Shown here in pieces: positions 1 to 19,527 of a stretch of 40,323 nucleotides of DNA. The stretch spans positions 1-40,323 of IMG/VR virus record IMGVR_UViG_650377933_000001, one strand, 5' to 3'. Every line of letters begins with the position of its first letter. Positions within the stretch are counted from its first letter, which is position 1. The notes beneath the pieces are model-generated. The model worked only from the letters and a program-made list of their open reading frames with translations. It did not search any database and was not told the DNA's origin. The DNA comes from a virus (taxonomy: Duplodnaviria > Heunggongvirae > Uroviricota > Caudoviricetes). The translations under genes were made by a program, and so were the position numbers.

Positions 1-1074
1 TCATTTGTCGATTTCAATTTTGTCCCATTCACGCCCACGACTGTCCCTATACCGCGCCGCCATTGAATCTGATTTATGCCCGAGAAGACGTTGAGCAAAC
101 TTATCGCCAATCTGATTCCGGTATAGCCTCGCCGACAGGCTACGCAGTTCATGGAATGTTGGCGGGTCTCCATCAAATGAGAGTCCAGATACATTTCTCG
201 CCTTTGTAAAATACTTAGATACTGTTTTCGGGGAAAGCGGTTCGTGATGCGTTGATGCAATTATTGTTTCACTGCCGCTGGCCTCCCTGCATTTCTGTAG
301 TGTATCAGCCAATGAGATATTGAGCGCGTCAATCGTTAGCATCAGCGGAATGGCGAGCTTAGTACCTGTTTTACCCTGCTCAATGTGAAGATGGTTGTCG
401 TTTATGTCTGACCATTTCATTCTACATAAATCGCCTACTCTCTGCCCTGTAACGACAGCCAAATCCATTGCCAGCCTCAGCCAGATTGGGAGCGGTTCGG
501 CTGCATGGTAAATCGCGACATATTCATTAGCTGTCAGCCTTGAGCGCCTTACTTCTGACTTTGCTGTGCGGGTTGCTGTTACCGGATTCGTTTCCACATG
601 CCCCTCGGCTATTGCCTCACGAAAAACGTCAACAAGGGTTGACCTGATTAATTTTGCGGAAGCTGCTTTACCTTCTGCTACGTAGGTGTTTAGCATTGCT
701 GCCACTTCTTTCGTTGATATGTCAGTGAGCGGTTTGTCCGGCAATTTTCTTCGGATTACCCTGATTTTGCTGGCGTAGTCGAGTAGAGTTTTCGGTCTGA
801 TACCCCTCTCGCTGAGGATTGTTTCATATCGGTCAAGCCACGCATGAAGAGTGATTGCGTCAGCGCCTTTAATTCTGTCTATCAGTGACTCACGCCTGTT
901 CTCGGATAGCAACTCAATATTGGCCTGAATAGCCTCTGAAACTGCTATCCTTCTGTCTCTGCCTAATCCAAACTCTTTACCCGTCCTTGGGTCCCTGTAG
1001 CAGTAATATCCATTGTTTCTTATATAAAGGTTAGGGGGTAAATCCCGGCGCTCATGACTTCTCCTTCTTCCCAT
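1..1074 (-). CDS. int: Tyrosine integrase, lambda Int family
   Basis: 357-aa translation starting MGRRRSHERRDLPPNLYIRNNGYYCYRDPRTGKEFGLGRDRR, near-identical to my recollection of lambda Int, with C-terminal HELRSL...LLGH...Y catalytic motifs. Confidence 0.95.
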   Translation of the reverse strand: MGRRRSHERRDLPPNLYIRNNGYYCYRDPRTGKEFGLGRDRRIAVSEAIQANIELLSENRRESLIDRIKGADAITLHAWLDRYETILSERGIRPKTLLDYASKIRVIRRKLPDKPLTDISTKEVAAMLNTYVAEGKAASAKLIRSTLVDVFREAIAEGHVETNPVTATRTAKSEVRRSRLTANEYVAIYHAAEPLPIWLRLAMDLAVVTGQRVGDLCRMKWSDINDNHLHIEQGKTGTKLAIPLMLTIDALNISLADTLQKCREASGSETIIASTHHEPLSPKTVSKYFTKARNVSGLSFDGDPPTFHELRSLSARLYRNQIGDKFAQRLLGHKSDSMAARYRDSRGREWDKIEIDK

Positions 1075-2272: not shown

Positions 2273-2532
2273 TACCGCACCTCCAGTCTCCATACCGCCT
2301 GACCAATCCGGCTGGCATAGGTATCTTTGGATACTGCTCCGTCTTTAGCCAGCTCCATAAGAATTTTGCGCAAATCTGCCGAACGCCATTCTTCATCAGG
2401 AAATTCCTTCTCCATTGCCAACCGCAGATTCCAGGTTGCCATCCTGAATGGATATTCCCCGCCGAGAGCTTTATCTTGCAGGGCAGCCCGGGAACGCATC
2501 ACCTGCAAAATCTTCTCTTTGACATCCATCAT
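2272..2532 (-). CDS. Hypothetical protein (86 aa)
   Basis: ORF with GAGG RBS; start ATG overlaps the stop of the upstream gene (ATGA). Confidence 0.5.
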   Translation of the reverse strand: MMDVKEKILQVMRSRAALQDKALGGEYPFRMATWNLRLAMEKEFPDEEWRSADLRKILMELAKDGAVSKDTYASRIGQAVWRLEVR

Positions 2533-3167
2533 TTTGCCTCCTGAGGCGGTTCCGGTAGAGGCATCCAGAACAAGGCGTTCCCTAACCACGATAAAGTGCC
2601 GTCGCTCAACTCCACGTATTCCTCTTGTACCTGTCCTGCCATATACTCGCCGTGCTTTGAATAAATTAAAATCCAGTCATCTTGAGCGGGCATTCGCTCA
2701 CTACAGCTTATCCAACCATCCGGAGTTACCGGAGCGTTGCCACCGGGAATATTTTCCGGAATATTTTGTTGTGCGTTTTGTGGTTGTTCGGATTTACCCT
2801 GAAGCATGGCGGCGCGGCAGGCGTTCCAGCCAGCTGTTCGCCCAAGCGCGTAAACTTCAGATGGCTCAAGATAATCAATGTCATGCCCATCCTCATCGTC
2901 GTTCTCAGGTAATGCAGCAGGTACTACCGGTACTGGCGGAGCGGCGTAGACTTCAATAATCCCATTATCAATAGGCCATTCCCCATCCTTGATGTAGTCA
3001 CTTGTGCCGTCAACTTGCTGTTCTGCAATGTGGAATGCACCAACTGGCTCTGCCTCAAGCGAGGCCAGTGCAATTCGTGCCAGTTCCATTTGTTCGCCAC
3101 GGGTAAGCCCGTTTTCAAGCGGGGATTTAATGAACAATTCGATACGTTCTTTAGTGATAGTGCTCAT
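2529..3167 (-). CDS. Hypothetical phage protein with DUF551-like C-terminus (212 aa)
   Basis: Start taken at MSTITKERIE, 1 nt after the upstream stop; C-terminal ...DGTLSWLGNALFWMPLPEPP resembles the DUF551 region as I recall it. Confidence 0.55.
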   Translation of the reverse strand: MSTITKERIELFIKSPLENGLTRGEQMELARIALASLEAEPVGAFHIAEQQVDGTSDYIKDGEWPIDNGIIEVYAAPPVPVVPAALPENDDEDGHDIDYLEPSEVYALGRTAGWNACRAAMLQGKSEQPQNAQQNIPENIPGGNAPVTPDGWISCSERMPAQDDWILIYSKHGEYMAGQVQEEYVELSDGTLSWLGNALFWMPLPEPPQEAK

Positions 3168-3168
3168 A

Positions 3169-3771
3169 TCACTCTCCTTTGATGCGAATGCCAGCGGCGC
3201 GGATAGATTTCCATTGTTTCCACATTCGGTTGAAGTCTGTGCCTGATAAGGTTGCGTTACGGTATCCAGTTTCGGTGCGCAATCCTTCAAGCGTCGATTT
3301 GGAGATACAAATTGAATGCATTACCCATGATTCAAACAAATCACGCTCACGGGCTTCGCAACTTTGCTTACTCATCTCTTCGATACGTTCAGCCATCGCA
3401 GCACACTCTTCAAAGTTGCTTAATGCATTTCGCTCCCATTCGGCGCATTGTTTTCCAAGCTCTGCAATCAGCTTGTCTTTGCCTTCCAGCTCAACACGCA
3501 GCTTCCCTACCGTTAACGCAATATCCTCGTTCTCCTGGTCGCGGCGTTTGATGTACTGCTGGTTTCTTTCCCGTTCATCCAGTAGTGCCAGCACGGTTTC
3601 TGGTCCGGCCAGAAATTTGAAGGCGTTGAGCGCATCAATATCCACACCGTAATCTTTAAGTTCCTGTTCACTTAACAAATCATCATCAGCTGGCAACATT
3701 AACAGGCGTTCCATCGCTGGAATTGCACGTTCCGCCGCCTCACGCAGTGCCTGATAGTTAATTTGGGTCAC
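3169..3771 (-). CDS. Ead/Ea22-like coiled-coil protein (200 aa)
   Basis: ORF-track translation; GTG start overlapping the upstream stop (GTGA) with GGAGG upstream; acidic coiled-coil character typical of Ea22-like proteins. Confidence 0.55.
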   Translation of the reverse strand: MTQINYQALREAAERAIPAMERLLMLPADDDLLSEQELKDYGVDIDALNAFKFLAGPETVLALLDERERNQQYIKRRDQENEDIALTVGKLRVELEGKDKLIAELGKQCAEWERNALSNFEECAAMAERIEEMSKQSCEARERDLFESWVMHSICISKSTLEGLRTETGYRNATLSGTDFNRMWKQWKSIRAAGIRIKGE

Positions 3772-4166: not shown

Positions 4167-4463
4167 TCAGTCATTACTGATAGCGCCATAGCGTGATCGA
4201 TAATTACGCAGGCGCGGGTCGATATATTCAGGGAAGTGGGTATATGTGGCTTTGCGGAATGGTCGGATTGATGTCTGGTAAATTCGCTCGCGCTCTTCTT
4301 TCTCTGCAAGCCATATACAGTGGCGAAATTCCTTTTCCTCTTTTGTTTCCTGCGGTAGCGACATTATCCGGTCGTAGTTTTTTCTGAATTTATCCAGCAC
4401 CTCCGATACGGAATTGCCGGAACAGCGGCGCGGGTCATCCGCACCATACAGAGGCGCTGGCAT
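4167..4463 (-). CDS. abc2: Anti-RecBCD protein Abc2
   Basis: 98-aa translation [31 protein letters not shown]... matches my recollection of P22 Abc2; located next to erf as in P22. Confidence 0.65.
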
Positions 4464-4486: not shown

Positions 4487-4870
4487 TCAGAATGGGATGG
4501 AATCGTCGTATACAGGAGTGTTCTGCTGGTTACTACTTTGCTGCTGCGGGCCATTTCCTGAAGCTGCAAATCCAATCTTTGCATTCAGTAATTCAAGAGT
4601 GATTGATTGACCATTTTGCCCCTGATAAACATCAACCCTGATGTTTTCTCCGGTAATTTCCACAATGCCACCTTCAACAAGAACACTACGGTAGTAATCC
4701 GCTTGCGCTCCCGGCTTGGCAAATACAACGGCGCTGTAGTTTGTCCATTCTTTCTTTTTTGTCTGGCGATCGTAATACTGAACTCCAGCACGGATGTTGA
4801 ATCCGATATTTTCCCCGGCCTGAAACTCTCTTGCGGGCTTGTTTAGTCTTACAGTAATCGAATGTGCCAT
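4487..4870 (-). CDS. ssb: Single-stranded DNA-binding protein (phage SSB)
   Basis: Start MAHSITVRLN overlaps the erf stop (TAATG); C-terminal acidic tail ...PVYDDSIPF is the hallmark SSB tail; Gly/Gln-rich linker. Confidence 0.75.
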   Translation of the reverse strand: MAHSITVRLNKPAREFQAGENIGFNIRAGVQYYDRQTKKKEWTNYSAVVFAKPGAQADYYRSVLVEGGIVEITGENIRVDVYQGQNGQSITLELLNAKIGFAASGNGPQQQSSNQQNTPVYDDSIPF

Positions 4871-5475
4871 TAAGCAGCCGCTCCTTCTAATTCGTCTCGT
4901 CTGATGTTGTAAACGTCCTGCGCTTTGTGCTGCTCCGGTGTGCCTTCGAGCATCTTCCACGCTTTGGCGAACGCCTGTTTAAGCTCTTCCACGGTGTTTT
5001 TCTGCAATGCTGCGTCAGTGAATGCTTTTAGAACCTGTTCAGGTGTAGGTGATGGTTTTGATTGCTTTGCTGCTGCGTTCTGCTGATGTTTATGCTCGTC
5101 GGTATCTGCATCTTTCGCATCATCAATGCCGAACAAACCATTGAGGCAATACTTGCGTGCATAAGAGCTTGTGGCTCCCGTAACTTGTGCAGAATCCATT
5201 CCTTTCTTGCTTTCTTCCTCTCGTGCAAGAGCGGTTGCCGTATGACTGTTTTCGCCATCGGTAATAGTTGCCGTGGCTTTCACGTAATACCGATCACCAA
5301 TCAACACAACTTCATCGCTGATTGATAAAAACAGGCCATTAAGCAGCGGCTTAACGCCTTCAAGAATATCTTCGCAGCTTCTGTATTTATATTTACCGAA
5401 TGAGTTGTACTGATTCTTTGGCGCGTTCAGATTCTCCTGAATAGCTGCCAGTCTTGCGTAAAATTCTTTGCTCAT
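4870..5475 (-). CDS. erf: Erf-family single-strand annealing recombinase
   Basis: Translation from MSKEFYARLAAIQENLNAPKNQYNSFGKYKYRSCEDILEGVKPLL matches recalled P22 Erf; the longer track ORF has an unsupported N-terminal extension. Confidence 0.85.
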   Translation of the reverse strand: MSKEFYARLAAIQENLNAPKNQYNSFGKYKYRSCEDILEGVKPLLNGLFLSISDEVVLIGDRYYVKATATITDGENSHTATALAREEESKKGMDSAQVTGATSSYARKYCLNGLFGIDDAKDADTDEHKHQQNAAAKQSKPSPTPEQVLKAFTDAALQKNTVEELKQAFAKAWKMLEGTPEQHKAQDVYNIRRDELEGAAA

Positions 5476-5485
5476 ATGATTGTTC

Positions 5486-5656
5486 TCAGAATGGACATGG
5501 CCCAAGGAAATAACGCTGATTTAATACTTCGACTCGGGACAAGTTAAGGAATACCCGCATTCCTTCGCGGTCACCATTATGGCGATACCAGAGAGCTTTC
5601 TGCGTGTACATGCGTCTCTGTAACTTGCTCTCCTTCACTGTGGTTGCAAGTGACAT
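5486..5656 (-). CDS. Small ORF (56 aa, MSLATTVKESK...), arf-position candidate
   Basis: Manual translation; AAGGAG RBS 7 nt upstream. Overlaps the 5577-5735 ORF in another frame, so only one is likely real. Confidence 0.3.
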   Translation of the reverse strand: MSLATTVKESKLQRRMYTQKALWYRHNGDREGMRVFLNLSRVEVLNQRYFLGPCPF

Positions 5657-5735
5657 GAATATCTCCTTCGTTATCGATTAATTCTTTCATCTGACGAATG
5701 AATTCTTCGTCTGACCAGTTATCTGTAAAACTCAT
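5577..5735 (-). CDS. Small ORF (52 aa, MSFTDNWSDEEF...), arf-position candidate
   Basis: Manual translation; ATG overlaps the kil stop (ATGA), suggesting translational coupling. Competes with the 5486-5656 ORF. Confidence 0.3.
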   Translation of the reverse strand: MSFTDNWSDEEFIRQMKELIDNEGDIHVTCNHSEGEQVTETHVHAESSLVSP

Positions 5736-5884
5736 TTCCTGCGATACCACGGAAGGTTGATAGCTGATTTCATCGCTTTATTTGCTTCAAGCCACATTTT
5801 TGAATCACCAATAAATCTGGCTATTACTGCTTTGTTCTGTGCAGCACGAAGCATCTGGTGATTGATGGCTATTTCATTGCGCAT
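5732..5884 (-). CDS. kil: Kil-like host division inhibitor (50 aa)
   Basis: Manual translation MRNEIAINHQMLRAAQNKAVIARFIGDSKMW... resembles the lambda Kil core as I recall it; lies just downstream of cIII as in lambda/P22. Confidence 0.5.
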   Translation of the reverse strand: MRNEIAINHQMLRAAQNKAVIARFIGDSKMWLEANKAMKSAINLPWYRRK

Positions 5885-6000
5885 AATAAGACCTCAACTC
5901 TTTTCCATCCGTCACGTAATTTACGGGTGATTCGTTCAAGTAAAGATTCATTTAATTGGAAGGCACCCATGCGAGCGCCTCCCGCGATTGCGTAAATCAT
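5869..6000 (-). CDS. cIII: CIII protein (FtsH inhibitor, 43 aa)
   Basis: Manual translation MIYAIAGGARMGAFQLNESLLERITRKLRDGWKRVEV...; the ESLLERITRKLRDGWKR stretch matches the lambda CIII core. Confidence 0.7.
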   Translation of the reverse strand: MIYAIAGGARMGAFQLNESLLERITRKLRDGWKRVEVLLCAMK

Positions 6001-6024: not shown

Positions 6025-6993
6025 TTAGTAGGTTATTTTTGTTGCGAATACTTCGCCTTTTACGATGGCTGTTATGATATTTTTAGCAACATCTTCTGAT
6101 GCGCCAACCTTGATAAGGTCAGCAAGTATTTTGTTATTTACTTCTTTCCGGTGAGCTTTATCCTTTGCTCTACACTCTTCCTCTTCCTTGATTCTTTTTT
6201 CTTCTGCTATTCTGGCTTGCTCTTTTGCTTCAGCCTCGCGCCGGATTCGTTCAGCCTCCTCCTGTGCTTTTCGGCGTTCTGCTTCAATTGCCGCCTGCTT
6301 TTCTCTTTCAGCTCGTTCTGCTGCCTCTTTTGCTTCGCGCTGTGCTCGTTGCTCGGCTTCAATGCGTTCACGCTCTGCACGTTCCGCTGCGGCCTTAGCT
6401 TCTGCTTCTCGCCTTGCTGCTGCTTCAATTTCGTCTTTTGCCTTTGCTTCGGCTTCTGCTCTGGCTTTCTCTTCAGCTTCTCTTTTTAAGCGTTCTTCAT
6501 GCTCTCGCTTTTCCTGCTCCGCTTTGAGTCTTGCCTCTTCTCTTTGGCGGTCAAATTCGCGATCCATCAAAATAGCTATTTCATGGTCAGACTCAATTTG
6601 CTTTGCGAGAGCTTCAGCTGCTGCCTTAGCTTCTTCTTCGGCTTTAATCCGCGCCCGTTCTTCCTCATAATCAGTAAGAGGCTGGCGTGCCTTGGCTTTC
6701 AGCTCATCAAGGCGATCACGCACTGTCTTGCGGTTAGCATCAATTAGCTTTGGAATTTCCTTCAGTTCAGCAACAAGGTCTTTGCCAAGACCATCGAGAT
6801 ATGTTTTCGTCTGCGCAACTTTATACGCCAGAGAAGCGATCTCCTTTCTGCCCTTTGCCGTTGTGATATCAGGCACAAAGGACATAACTTCACGTTCAAC
6901 CTTTTGAAGGATTTCTTCAATCTGGTCGGCAGACTGAAATACAGTCATTGCATTTGCTTTTTCAATAACAACTAAATCTGTTACTTCACTCAT
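6025..6993 (-). CDS. Hypothetical E/A/K/R-rich coiled-coil protein (322 aa)
   Basis: ORF-track translation; GGAGGA RBS; structured N-terminal ~120 aa, then ~180 aa of low-complexity AEAEAKA/ERAERE repeats, then a short C-terminal domain. No family assigned. Confidence 0.6.
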   Translation of the reverse strand: MSEVTDLVVIEKANAMTVFQSADQIEEILQKVEREVMSFVPDITTAKGRKEIASLAYKVAQTKTYLDGLGKDLVAELKEIPKLIDANRKTVRDRLDELKAKARQPLTDYEEERARIKAEEEAKAAAEALAKQIESDHEIAILMDREFDRQREEARLKAEQEKREHEERLKREAEEKARAEAEAKAKDEIEAAARREAEAKAAAERAERERIEAEQRAQREAKEAAERAEREKQAAIEAERRKAQEEAERIRREAEAKEQARIAEEKRIKEEEECRAKDKAHRKEVNNKILADLIKVGASEDVAKNIITAIVKGEVFATKITY

Positions 6994-7003
6994 ATATCCT
7001 CCG

Positions 7004-7034
7004 TCAAAAAATTGCCCTCACACTGGAGGGCAAA
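7004..7034 (-). terminator. Rho-independent terminator (minus strand) upstream of the 322-aa gene
   Basis: Minus strand TTGCCCTC-CAGTGT-GAGGGCAA followed by TTTTTTG, ending a few nt before the RBS of the gene starting at 6993. Confidence 0.5.
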
Positions 7035-7165: not shown

Positions 7166-7789
7166 CTATGCGGCCTCGGAAGGAAGTCCAATCATCTTAT
7201 TCAAATCTTCTACCCGTAAAGCAGGAAGTGCTGTACTTGCTTTATCTGCTTCTTTTGGTAGCAATTCTTTGCTTTCAGGCCAAACTTCAATAAGTCGCTT
7301 AACTGTTGTGACTGAGTTTAAAGCAGCCCATACATTTGATTCGATATCCTTTTTCTTGGCTTCAAGTTTTTGTTGCAATGCGCAGATTTCATCAAACCTT
7401 TTTGTTATTTCGTGCTCTGCGTCAAACATGCATTTATCTTTGGTCGGAGTAGGGAGCAATATATCTTCGCCGTTGCCGTCTTTCCCATATGAATGCCATC
7501 CAACCCTTCTGCCAGATACAGTCAGATAAATTGAAGTAGAACGAACATCGCATGAGTAAAATGAACATCCCAGTTTTTCAAGTTCTTCACTTATAGCTAC
7601 TAACTTGGAATATAAATGATCCACTTCCTCAGTTTTCTTTTTACCGCCAAACGCAATAACTCTGGCGTCAAGTGCAAGCTGGTTCTTTAACTTTGTTACT
7701 TCTTCAAGTTCAGTGAAAACCCCAGACTTAATTAAAGCGTTACGAGCGATTTCCTCTTTCATTCTCGTAGTTAAGCGGATTGATGACAT
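7166..7789 (-). CDS. Hypothetical protein (207 aa), pL-operon accessory gene
   Basis: Start chosen at MSSIRLTTRMKEE with GAGG 8 nt upstream; no recognisable catalytic motif by eye. Confidence 0.55.
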   Translation of the reverse strand: MSSIRLTTRMKEEIARNALIKSGVFTELEEVTKLKNQLALDARVIAFGGKKKTEEVDHLYSKLVAISEELEKLGCSFYSCDVRSTSIYLTVSGRRVGWHSYGKDGNGEDILLPTPTKDKCMFDAEHEITKRFDEICALQQKLEAKKKDIESNVWAALNSVTTVKRLIEVWPESKELLPKEADKASTALPALRVEDLNKMIGLPSEAA

Positions 7790-7999
7790 ATTAATTCCTC
7801 TCAAATAAGTGGTTTGCTGCCTAATTTCATTTTCTGGCGACCAACACAAGTCACACCCATTTCACTGCGTGGCTTGCGGTAGTAAAGATTGTGCCTGTCT
7901 TTTAACCACATCAGGCTCGGTGGTTCTCGTGTACCCCTACAGCGAGAAATCGGATAAACTCTATTCACCCCCTACAGAGAGAATGATGGAGATTCACCG

Positions 8000-8581: not shown

Positions 8582-8833
8582 TTATTTCCGGTAGCCTGCC
8601 GCGTAAATGGCTACATTTGGCAGGCAAACACTTCCACTGCATTCATCTGCCTTCTTGCAGCGAAGGGTTCCTAGTGATGCTGCTTTATCTGCTCTGACGC
8701 AACCAGAGAGCTTTAGCGCAATCTTTCGCGCCAGTCGCTGTTCTTGCATTGCCTGTTCACGTTGAGCCTGTCTGCGTGCTCTGCGGCGATTTCTGGCGTT
8801 ATCGTCAGCCAGATATGTAATGACTACTGTCAT
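8582..8833 (-). CDS. N: N-type transcription antiterminator (P22 gene 24-like)
   Basis: 83 aa with N-terminal arginine-rich motif NARNRRRARRQAQREQ and C-terminal ...LPNVAIYAAGYRK resembling recalled P22 gp24; GGAGG RBS; first gene downstream of pL/nutL. Confidence 0.7.
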   Translation of the reverse strand: MTVVITYLADDNARNRRRARRQAQREQAMQEQRLARKIALKLSGCVRADKAASLGTLRCKKADECSGSVCLPNVAIYAAGYRK

Positions 8834-18685: not shown

Positions 18686-19149
18686 GCAGAGTAACCGCGA
18701 TTATCTCCGCTCTGGTTATCTGCATCATCGTCTGCCTGTCATGGGCTGTTAATCATTACCGTGATAACGCCATCGCCTACAAAGAACAGCGAGATAAAAA
18801 AGTCAGTGAGCTGAAGCAGGCGACCGCCACCATTACTGACATGCAGCAGCGCCAGCGTTCTGCTGATGCACTCGATGCTAAATACACGAAGGAGTTAGCT
18901 GATGCGAAAGCTGAAAATGATGCTCTTCGGCGCAAGCTTGATAATGGTGGTCGGGTGTTCGTCAAAGGAAAATGCCCTGTGCCATCCTCAGCCGAAACCT
19001 CCAGCACCTCCGGCATGGGCAATGATGCCACCGTCGAACTCTCTCCAGTTGCTGGACGAAACGTTCTCGGTATCCGGGACGGAATCATCAGCGACCAAAC
19101 AGCACTGAGAACGCTTCAGGAATACATCAGGACGCAATGCCTTCGATGA
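18682..19149 (+). CDS. Rz: Rz inner-membrane spanin
   Basis: 155 aa with N-terminal TM segment and coiled-coil periplasmic domain; follows R as in lambda. Confidence 0.85.
18902..19108 (+). CDS. Rz1: Rz1 outer-membrane lipoprotein spanin (embedded in Rz, +1 frame)
   Basis: ORF inside Rz in another frame; signal peptide with lipobox ...MVVGCSS, Pro-rich mature part ([11 protein letters not shown]). Confidence 0.7.
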
Positions 19150-19304
19150 TAGCGATAATTTTACTCATCATCCTTCACATCTGGCTCTGTAGACAGGGTG
19201 GTGATCGCTTCTGGAGTGAATCCAGATTAAACATCTCATTGCTGATGCTTGATATTGAGCATCTGGCGCGCGGTAAGGGGCTGCGTTGAGATAAGAGCCA
19301 GTTC

Positions 19305-19339
19305 ATTACAAAGCCTATCTACGGGTGGGCTTGATAATG
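19305..19339. repeat. Copy 1 of a ~37-bp stem-loop motif upstream of the 19528-19908 gene
   Basis: ATTACAAAGCCTATCTACGGGTGGGCTTGATAATG; AAGCC...GGCTT can pair. Confidence 0.5.
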
Positions 19340-19527
19340 AAACCGGAATTTATTCTGGGTAACCAGTTACGGCAGTACAGCGAAACAACCCAAGCCAGTA
19401 AGTGGGGAAATAACACTGGCAGCCACTGAAAGATGAACCTCCTGCCTTATGGCAAAAAAGATTCTTTGTGGTGGCGGACTGATGGAAAGACATCCTAATC
19501 AAGCAACCACTCTACAGGGTCATAATT

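Follow-up and report, generated by a model that had tools for sequence, protein, structure and literature searches.

A pL-operon gene of an apparent P22/Sf6-like prophage belongs to a phage family associated with homologous-recombination modules

The pL (early-left) operon of the viral sequence analysed here (IMG/VR record IMGVR_UViG_650377933_000001, Caudoviricetes; 40,323 nt, positions 1 to 40,323 of the record, hereafter the window) contains a minus-strand open reading frame (ORF) of 322 aa between cIII and N. The question raised by this locus is whether the gene is an exclusion or host-takeover gene, as an earlier note made from the sequence alone had proposed, or belongs with the recombination functions encoded downstream. 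The extent of the ORF (6025-6993), its own strong ribosome-binding site (RBS), the intrinsic terminator just upstream and the location within the pL operon behind this terminator are as that note described them: GGAGG precedes the ATG by 4 nt, and a terminator scan located a hairpin followed by six T directly upstream of the ORF (Table 1). No sigma-70-like promoter was detected in the stretch separating the terminator from the ORF. As set out below, the gene falls within a widespread phage family lying at the head of homologous-recombination (Rec) modules, and its product is most likely a recombination/RecBCD accessory of these modules, acting at DNA ends.

A known family with a conserved domain, a charged rod and a C-terminal module

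On sequence grounds the ORF is a new member of a known, mechanistically uncharacterised phage family, which includes Agt/Mog of phi80, gp53 of D3 and gp33 of Sf6. Against PHROG 1376, a family of unknown function, it scores E 8e-109, and it has 98-99% nt identity to gene 33 of Sf6 and to the corresponding genes of HK544, mEp043, mEp213, IME10, CUS-3 and Sf101, several BASEL phages and Stx1a phages. Sf6 gene 33, the HK544, mEp043 and Stx1a homologues, ‘TolA’ of mEp213 and Orf53 of IME10 are essentially the same gene as the window ORF; Sf6 gene 33 and copies like it lie in the same place behind tL2A, and all are uncharacterised or mislabelled. Among 5426 complete E. coli genomes, 529 also carry the ORF at 95-99% identity, for the most part under the label ‘cell envelope biogenesis protein TolA’. 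The protein can thus be placed in a family, contrary to the earlier note; the profile search and structure prediction suggested there returned nothing from Pfam, the PHROG 1376 match and an all-helical AlphaFold2 (AF2) model.

When the first 125 aa were used as the query of an exhaustive HMMER search against protein clusters at 50% identity, 4994 clusters were matched at E <= 1e-3 (3520 at E <= 1e-10). Throughout the family the conserved domain is always N-terminal, with 40-60% identity across phages of E. coli, Pseudomonas, Vibrio and Sinorhizobium, and is followed by a charged middle of varying length (EAKRQ fraction 0.6-0.85); nearly all members end in HRk.iN...Gl.ee.Ak.vv.AIakG.Ip.V.InY. 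The 322-aa protein matches no Pfam or NCBIfam model, a scan of 60 relatives against the same collections identified no genuine family, and searches of the PDB with the single sequence and with a profile gave low-complexity matches only (e.g. Zuotin, ensconsin and major vault protein).

The CUS-3 copy has been annotated as a pair of ORFs, of 116 aa and 214 aa, and its match (locus positions 301-1270) exceeds the window gene by 1 nt, through a natural frameshift or else an error in sequencing; this split accounts for the separate PHROGs families for the N-terminal (17211) and C-terminal (21365) parts. Homologues with 33-63% identity to the Pseudomonas protein were also seen in metagenome-assembled genomes labelled Coriobacteriia, Actinomycetes, Woesearchaeota and Chryseobacterium, probably as a result of binning contamination rather than true host range.

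Three parts can be distinguished in the window protein (Table 1). The N-terminal domain, with AF2 helices at residues 12-20, 22-38, 46-76 and 81 onward, is rich in invariant Lys/Arg (invariant residues R49, K63, G70, K78, D85, R88 and E110) and contains the family pattern PD.sT.KGR...S.AyKva.sKt.lD..GK...K..pk.iDa.RK...PLt.wE. In the rod, Glu, Ala, Arg and Lys make up 79% of residues 111-290, and AF2 predicts two long helices (pLDDT 93-97) joined by a low-confidence turn at 179-188. Opposite-charge pairs at i/i+3 and i/i+4 are in excess (z = 5.2), as in ER/K-type charged helices, bulky hydrophobic residues number only 1-3 per 28 over residues 151-262, and no 3.5-residue periodicity peak was found. 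An Ala-based antiparallel hairpin and a single charged helix are both possible for this segment. The C-terminus of the ORF, DKAHRKEVNNKILADLIKVGASEDVAKNIITAIVKGEVFATKITY, fits the family C-terminal module when aligned with relatives (motif HRk.vNn...G..e.Ak.ii.AI.kG.v....I.Y, with a near-invariant terminal Tyr), and the AF2 model suggests a head formed by the N- and C-terminal parts on a helical stalk.

The charged character and the Glu/Ala/Lys/Arg low complexity noted earlier are therefore real features of the protein, while two associated claims need correction. A coiled coil is not established, because bulky hydrophobic residues are few and opposite-charge pairs are in excess, and the supposed repeats at the nucleotide level amount to biased composition, with no tandem-repeat array: the DNA encoding the rod is purine-rich on the coding strand and includes a single weak 48-nt repeat (two copies).

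Constant and variable neighbours

Near-identical copies of the gene were compared in 80 viral contigs from E. coli/Shigella (close loci). The gene is always followed by cIII, with homology running at least 123 nt beyond the stop codon in 80/80 loci, and kil lies after cIII in 68. Further downstream the recombinase differs between loci: ERF with an SSB-like protein in 41/80 (the SSB-like protein always being paired with the 211-aa Erf type), a Rad52/22-type protein with a canonical single-stranded DNA-binding protein (SSB) in 28/80, and AAA_24 (Sak4-type) or RecT in 4/80 each. The gene is thus maintained independently of recombinase type. Abc2 is encoded in 73/80 loci.

On the other side, the genes upstream of the 322-aa gene are highly variable. 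Nmad5, the upstream neighbour in the window, is present in only 13/80 loci, which marks its position as the part of the pL operon where cargo truly varies. The terminator, with a leader of 100-180 nt, is kept in ~66/80 loci; in the other 14 there is no terminator, homology stops at the RBS and another gene adjoins (e.g. an ea10 homologue). The RBS region, GGAGGATAT, is kept in all close copies, even where the upstream gene differs, and the Sf6 annotation likewise records a mosaic boundary beside tL2A. The 322-aa ORF and cIII therefore form a constant unit, with variable cargo upstream of the terminator. This is the reverse of the variable exclusion slot, of the ea10/ral type, in which the earlier note had placed the gene: in the comparison across related phages that it had suggested, the gene itself is constant at 95-99% identity while its upstream neighbours vary, and homologues of lambda ea10, when present, sit upstream and not in its place.

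More distant relatives were examined in a species-level sample of 80 loci, taken from contigs of one genome per species with a profile built from 12 sequences. Same-strand neighbours were clustered, cluster representatives were verified with Pfam (YqaJ, SSB, ERF, DUF3799, RecT and AAA_24) and the cluster hidden Markov models were re-searched. Among the 71 loci with at least 3 kb of downstream sequence, 60 have a same-strand gene for an SSAP (single-strand annealing protein), an exonuclease or SSB no more than 3.5 kb downstream, so that the conserved partners are recombination genes and not the exclusion genes expected from the earlier note. A recognised SSAP is encoded downstream in 50/71 (31 ERF, 15 RecT and 4 AAA_24), the median gap being 323 nt, with 13 lying within 50 nt and many at 8-11 nt; an SSAP upstream of the homologue was found in only 5/69 loci. 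Several of the loci scored as having none of these genes carry a YqaJ exonuclease 600-860 nt downstream, separated by an unidentified ORF.

Individual arrangements follow the same pattern. In JBD44 and D3 (Pseudomonas) and phiLM21 (Sinorhizobium) the homologue directly adjoins erf and an exonuclease gene, in Serratia Eta it is upstream of exoVIII and bet, in phi80 upstream of gamL-recT-exo, and in Vibrio Seahorse it adjoins an ATPase gene. Gam, GamL or Abc2 was detectable by BLAST in only 10/76 species-level loci, with Gam/GamL immediately downstream of the homologue in 9, and no recurrent Mu-Gam-like neighbour was seen, as judged by clustering rather than by Pfam. Sampled hosts include Sinorhizobium, Devosia, Sphingobium and Brevundimonas, Alphaproteobacteria that use AddAB and not RecBCD.

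Homologues with phenotypes and interpretation of the family

Two homologues are associated with phenotypes. Agt/Mog of phi80 (Lula; NC_021190, gp39), detected by permissive tblastn, is 322 aa in length, as here, and shows 50% identity over its full length (E 5e-63), with the same three-part architecture and the same position in the pL operon upstream of Rec genes. The genes that follow differ, agt being succeeded by gamL-recT-exo in phi80 and the window ORF by cIII-kil-gp33-erf-ssb-abc2, with no Gam/GamL. The phenotype is that given by the GenBank record, which annotates agt as ‘anti-toxin for Gam; Mog (modifier of Gam)’ and describes gamL as ‘toxic without Mog’. Between phi80 Agt (4501-5469 of its locus) and the window protein, identity is higher in the rod (~70%) than in the N-terminal domain (~40%), perhaps owing to low complexity or to intragenic recombination.

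The second, D3 gp53 (Orf53), to which the Sf6 annotation points, is the sole family member with published genetics. It is 55% identical in the N-terminal domain (E 1e-37) and shares the charged rod and the C-terminal motif but, at 354 aa, includes an extra segment after this domain; its host is Pseudomonas rather than E. coli and its gene lies directly upstream of erf-exo. D3 orf53 was identified as a ‘licensing factor’ for Gabija, independent of Exo-Erf (orf51-52) and of orf66 (PMC12407980, bioRxiv 10.1101/2025.08.30.673261). Its expression re-sensitises escape phages to Gabija, cross-complements an escaper of the unrelated phage JBD30 and renders transduced plasmids sensitive, and escape mutants lacking the orf53 region circularise earlier (PMC12407980). 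Mu Gam also licenses Gabija, with the same genetic outcome as D3 gp53, and the authors propose that licensing factors hold RecBCD away from DNA ends (PMC12407980). The third Gabija licensing factor, D3 orf66 (18961-19386 of its locus), is toxic with Gabija; it matches nothing in Pfam, and BLAST detected no homologue of it in any of the 160 loci examined here. The earlier suggestion of a defence, anti-defence or host-interaction factor is thus partly upheld, in that relatives affect Gam toxicity (phi80) and Gabija sensitivity (D3), while PADLOC-DB 2.0 contains no family for the ORF, D3 Orf53 or phi80 Agt.

The gene is best read as a promoter-proximal accessory of phage Rec modules. Its transcription would start at pL and would usually depend on N-mediated read-through of a tL2-type terminator, in one operon with cIII, kil, erf, ssb and abc2. 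Its product is predicted to be an elongated all-helical protein with a Lys/Arg-rich N-terminal head, a 170-residue charged rod and a small C-terminal module, and would act where the ends of injected or replicating phage DNA meet the host nuclease RecBCD (AddAB in other hosts). It may either occupy and shield DNA ends, presumably through the basic head, or modulate RecBCD inhibitors; in both cases the ends would be handled by the phage annealing and exonuclease machinery and not by RecBCD. The occurrence of four SSAP superfamilies downstream of 98%-identical copies suggests an invariant target, most plausibly DNA ends or a conserved end-processing function of the host, rather than one particular recombinase, as do the 40-60% identity of the N-terminal domain, the location of both phenotypes on the RecBCD axis and the presence of the family in phages of AddAB hosts. 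This last observation also favours DNA ends over a specific surface of one nuclease.

Several observations weigh against this interpretation. Synteny alone could stem from a shared operon history, and the loci of the species-level sample were selected for their likeness to D3 gp53 and come mainly from Gammaproteobacteria. The protein has no sequence or fold likeness to Gam (PF06064), Mu Gam (PF07352), Abc2 (PF11043), Ku or solved structures, and is acidic overall (net charge -9), unusual in a DNA binder. HK75 carries the block cIII-kil-gp33-erf-ssb-abc2 without the gene, which, with the split copy in CUS-3, indicates that it is non-essential, and an additional anti-RecBCD role would be redundant in the window, where Abc2 and a homologue of HK75 Gp33 are both encoded. 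To our knowledge, no biochemical activity has been reported for any member of the family. D3 deletions lacking orf53 are well tolerated in the laboratory (PMC12407980).

Other roles were considered against the same evidence. The phi80 annotation, in which gamL is toxic in the absence of Mog, would be explained by an antitoxin or modifier that binds Gam-, Abc2- or Gp33-like RecBCD inhibitors and tempers or localises their activity, a role also compatible with the Gam/GamL gene immediately downstream in 9 species-level loci, with Abc2 in most close copies and with the Abc2 and Gp33 homologues of the window operon. As a general function this appears unlikely, because Gam, GamL or Abc2 is detectable in so few species-level loci, no Mu-Gam-like neighbour recurs and D3 gp53 licenses Gabija alone, in an unrelated phage and on plasmids; in addition, the Pseudomonas, Achromobacter and Sinorhizobium types adjoin erf or recT directly. 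A recombination mediator or scaffold with no direct relation to RecBCD, the rod tethering ends or recruiting SSAP, exonuclease or SSB (e.g. for circularisation), would account for the tight operon linkage with SSAP, exonuclease and SSB genes (gaps of 8-11 nt in many loci), a position like the one DUF1351 occupies upstream of erf, sak4 or recT, the predicted head on a helical stalk and the earlier circularisation of D3 escape mutants. It is nonetheless improbable given that both known phenotypes concern Gam toxicity and Gabija/RecBCD, and a scaffold binding a specific SSAP is further argued against by partner SSAPs that span four unrelated or very distant superfamilies.

The idea of the earlier note, an independent moron for defence, anti-defence or host takeover with no connection to recombination, draws on a location among the early pL genes, close to sieB and to ral-type and other accessory genes, on the gene being non-essential and patchy in its distribution and on the altered outcome of a defence system with a homologue. 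Neither of the findings that the note named as refuting it was made: no homology to a housekeeping or structural family was found, and the gene is missing from HK75 and lambda. The lack of a PADLOC match, the retention of the gene at 95-99% identity while neighbours upstream of the terminator vary, and a synteny with recombination genes that is strong, directional and maintained in hosts of phyla-level diversity make it a quite remote prospect. A TolA-like cell-envelope protein, as annotated in the many records labelled ‘TolA’ or ‘cell envelope biogenesis protein TolA’, is effectively refuted. The model TIGR02794 (tolA_full) is matched by 11/60 relatives, but the window protein itself matches no such NCBIfam or Pfam model (TIGR02794/PRK09510) and lacks the TolA C-terminal domain, and its N-terminus, MSEVTDLVVIEKANAMTVFQ, is not hydrophobic and so provides no membrane anchor; the labels are artefacts of the shared Glu/Ala/Lys-rich helix, from which the matches of the relatives arise.

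A Rec-module accessory acting at DNA ends would have positional counterparts elsewhere. In the lambda gam-bet-exo arrangement, Gam holds the same promoter-proximal side of the SSAP-exonuclease block as the window gene, although the window protein is far larger than lambda Gam, phi80 GamL, P22 Abc2 or Mu Gam. In Firmicutes phages, DUF1351 proteins (PF07083; ~300 aa, similar in size to the window protein) are encoded immediately upstream of sak4, erf or recT together with ssb (PMC8093625), the same position as the PHROG 1376 family; the order in Oenococcus phage phi9805 is DUF1351, AAA_24, DUF669. PF07083 was matched by 0/60 PHROG 1376 family members, and hhalign of the family, run against a single DUF1351 sequence and against a small and shallow DUF1351 profile, gave weak colinear alignments, neither of them significant (P 0.03 and 0.12; probability below 2%). 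The AF2 model of DUF1351 (pLDDT 76) comprises a 16-residue helix, a loop, a 31-residue helix, a 4-residue loop and a long helix, closely resembling the N-terminal helix pattern of the window protein but without its long charged rod, and weakly matches a PHROG 1376 member in BFVD (E 0.046, probability 0.82), where the two families also have weak matches in common. Homology of DUF1351 to the family is possible, and it is treated here as a positional analogue.

The operon in the window and implications for phage Rec modules

Table 1 Features of the 322-aa ORF and of the surrounding pL operon in the window.
Feature	Position	Strand	Basis or remarks
N	8582-8833	-	PF25694
Nmad5 protein (‘nucleotide modification associated domain 5’)	7166-7849	-	PF18757
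Intrinsic terminator	7006-7033	-	Terminator scan; hairpin 7033-7012, six T 7011-7006; homologous site named tL2A in Sf6
RBS GGAGG	6998-7002	-	Read from sequence
322-aa ORF	6025-6993	-	ATG start; Agt/Mog - D3 gp53 - Sf6 gp33 family (PHROG 1376)
Conserved N-terminal domain, residues ~1-112	6658-6993	-	Short N-terminal strand and three helices; matched by the 4994 clusters
Charged Glu/Ala/Arg/Lys helical rod, residues ~113-280	6154-6657	-	Composition, AF2 and charge pattern
Conserved C-terminal module, residues ~281-322	6028-6153	-	Motif common to C-termini of distant relatives
cIII	5869-6000	-	PF02061, E 4e-15
kil	5732-5884	-	PF06301, E 2e-20
57-aa homologue of HK75 Gp33	5577-5750	-	90% identity; same Rec block
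Erf single-strand annealing protein	4870-5505	-	PF04404, E 2.5e-44
SSB-like protein, DDSIPF tail	4487-4960	-	Translation; true start probably internal; no Pfam SSB match
Abc2 anti-RecBCD protein	4167-4463	-	PF11043, E 4e-62
Ead/Ea22-like protein	3169-3771	-	Further along early-left operon
DUF551 protein	2529-3290	-	Further along early-left operon
Integrase	1-1074		

With an integrase at one end and these early-left genes, the window looks like a complete P22/Sf6-like prophage. The ORF is upstream of and co-oriented with the SSAP/SSB block (Table 1), the Nmad5 gene sits between sieB/N and the tL2-type terminator, and sieB is encoded on the opposite strand. The 57-aa Gp33 family is labelled ‘recombinase’ in PHROGs (phrog_2123); HK75 Gp33 was reported to be sufficient to trigger the OLD abortive system and hypothesised to be a new inhibitor or manipulator of RecBCD (2026 preprint). 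HK75 Gp33 was considered as a relative of the 322-aa protein and rejected, being a 56-aa neighbour gene product of a separate family.

Phage Rec modules underlie recombineering and are increasingly seen as a trigger of Gabija, OLD and retrons. In a 2025 survey of 325 lambdoid Rec modules, the most detailed of the recent ones, four functions were recognised (SSB, nuclease, annealing protein and anti-RecBCD) and the PHROG 1376 family is unmentioned; mEp234 and EhrS_49, prototypes in that survey without an anti-RecBCD function, both carry the gene family. Here, a family of ~5000 clusters is found to head Rec modules over a range that runs from Enterobacterales to Alphaproteobacteria, with two independent genetic links to RecBCD biology. 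The window gene should be described as a Rec-module accessory tied to RecBCD and defence sensing, and neither as TolA nor as a variable exclusion gene. A broader view, put forward tentatively, is that the family, possibly with DUF1351 as a remote relative, may represent a general, unrecognised fifth component of phage annealing modules: a rod-shaped DNA-end factor, analogous to Gam or Ku and structurally unrelated to them, that would shield ends from RecBCD/AddAB and be sensed indirectly by Gabija (and perhaps by OLD or retrons). Once the activity of the family is established, it could fill the anti-RecBCD gap in modules of the mEp234/EhrS_49 type and account for one of the routes by which Gabija is licensed; thousands of ‘TolA’ mis-annotations could be corrected, and recombineering cassettes perhaps improved.

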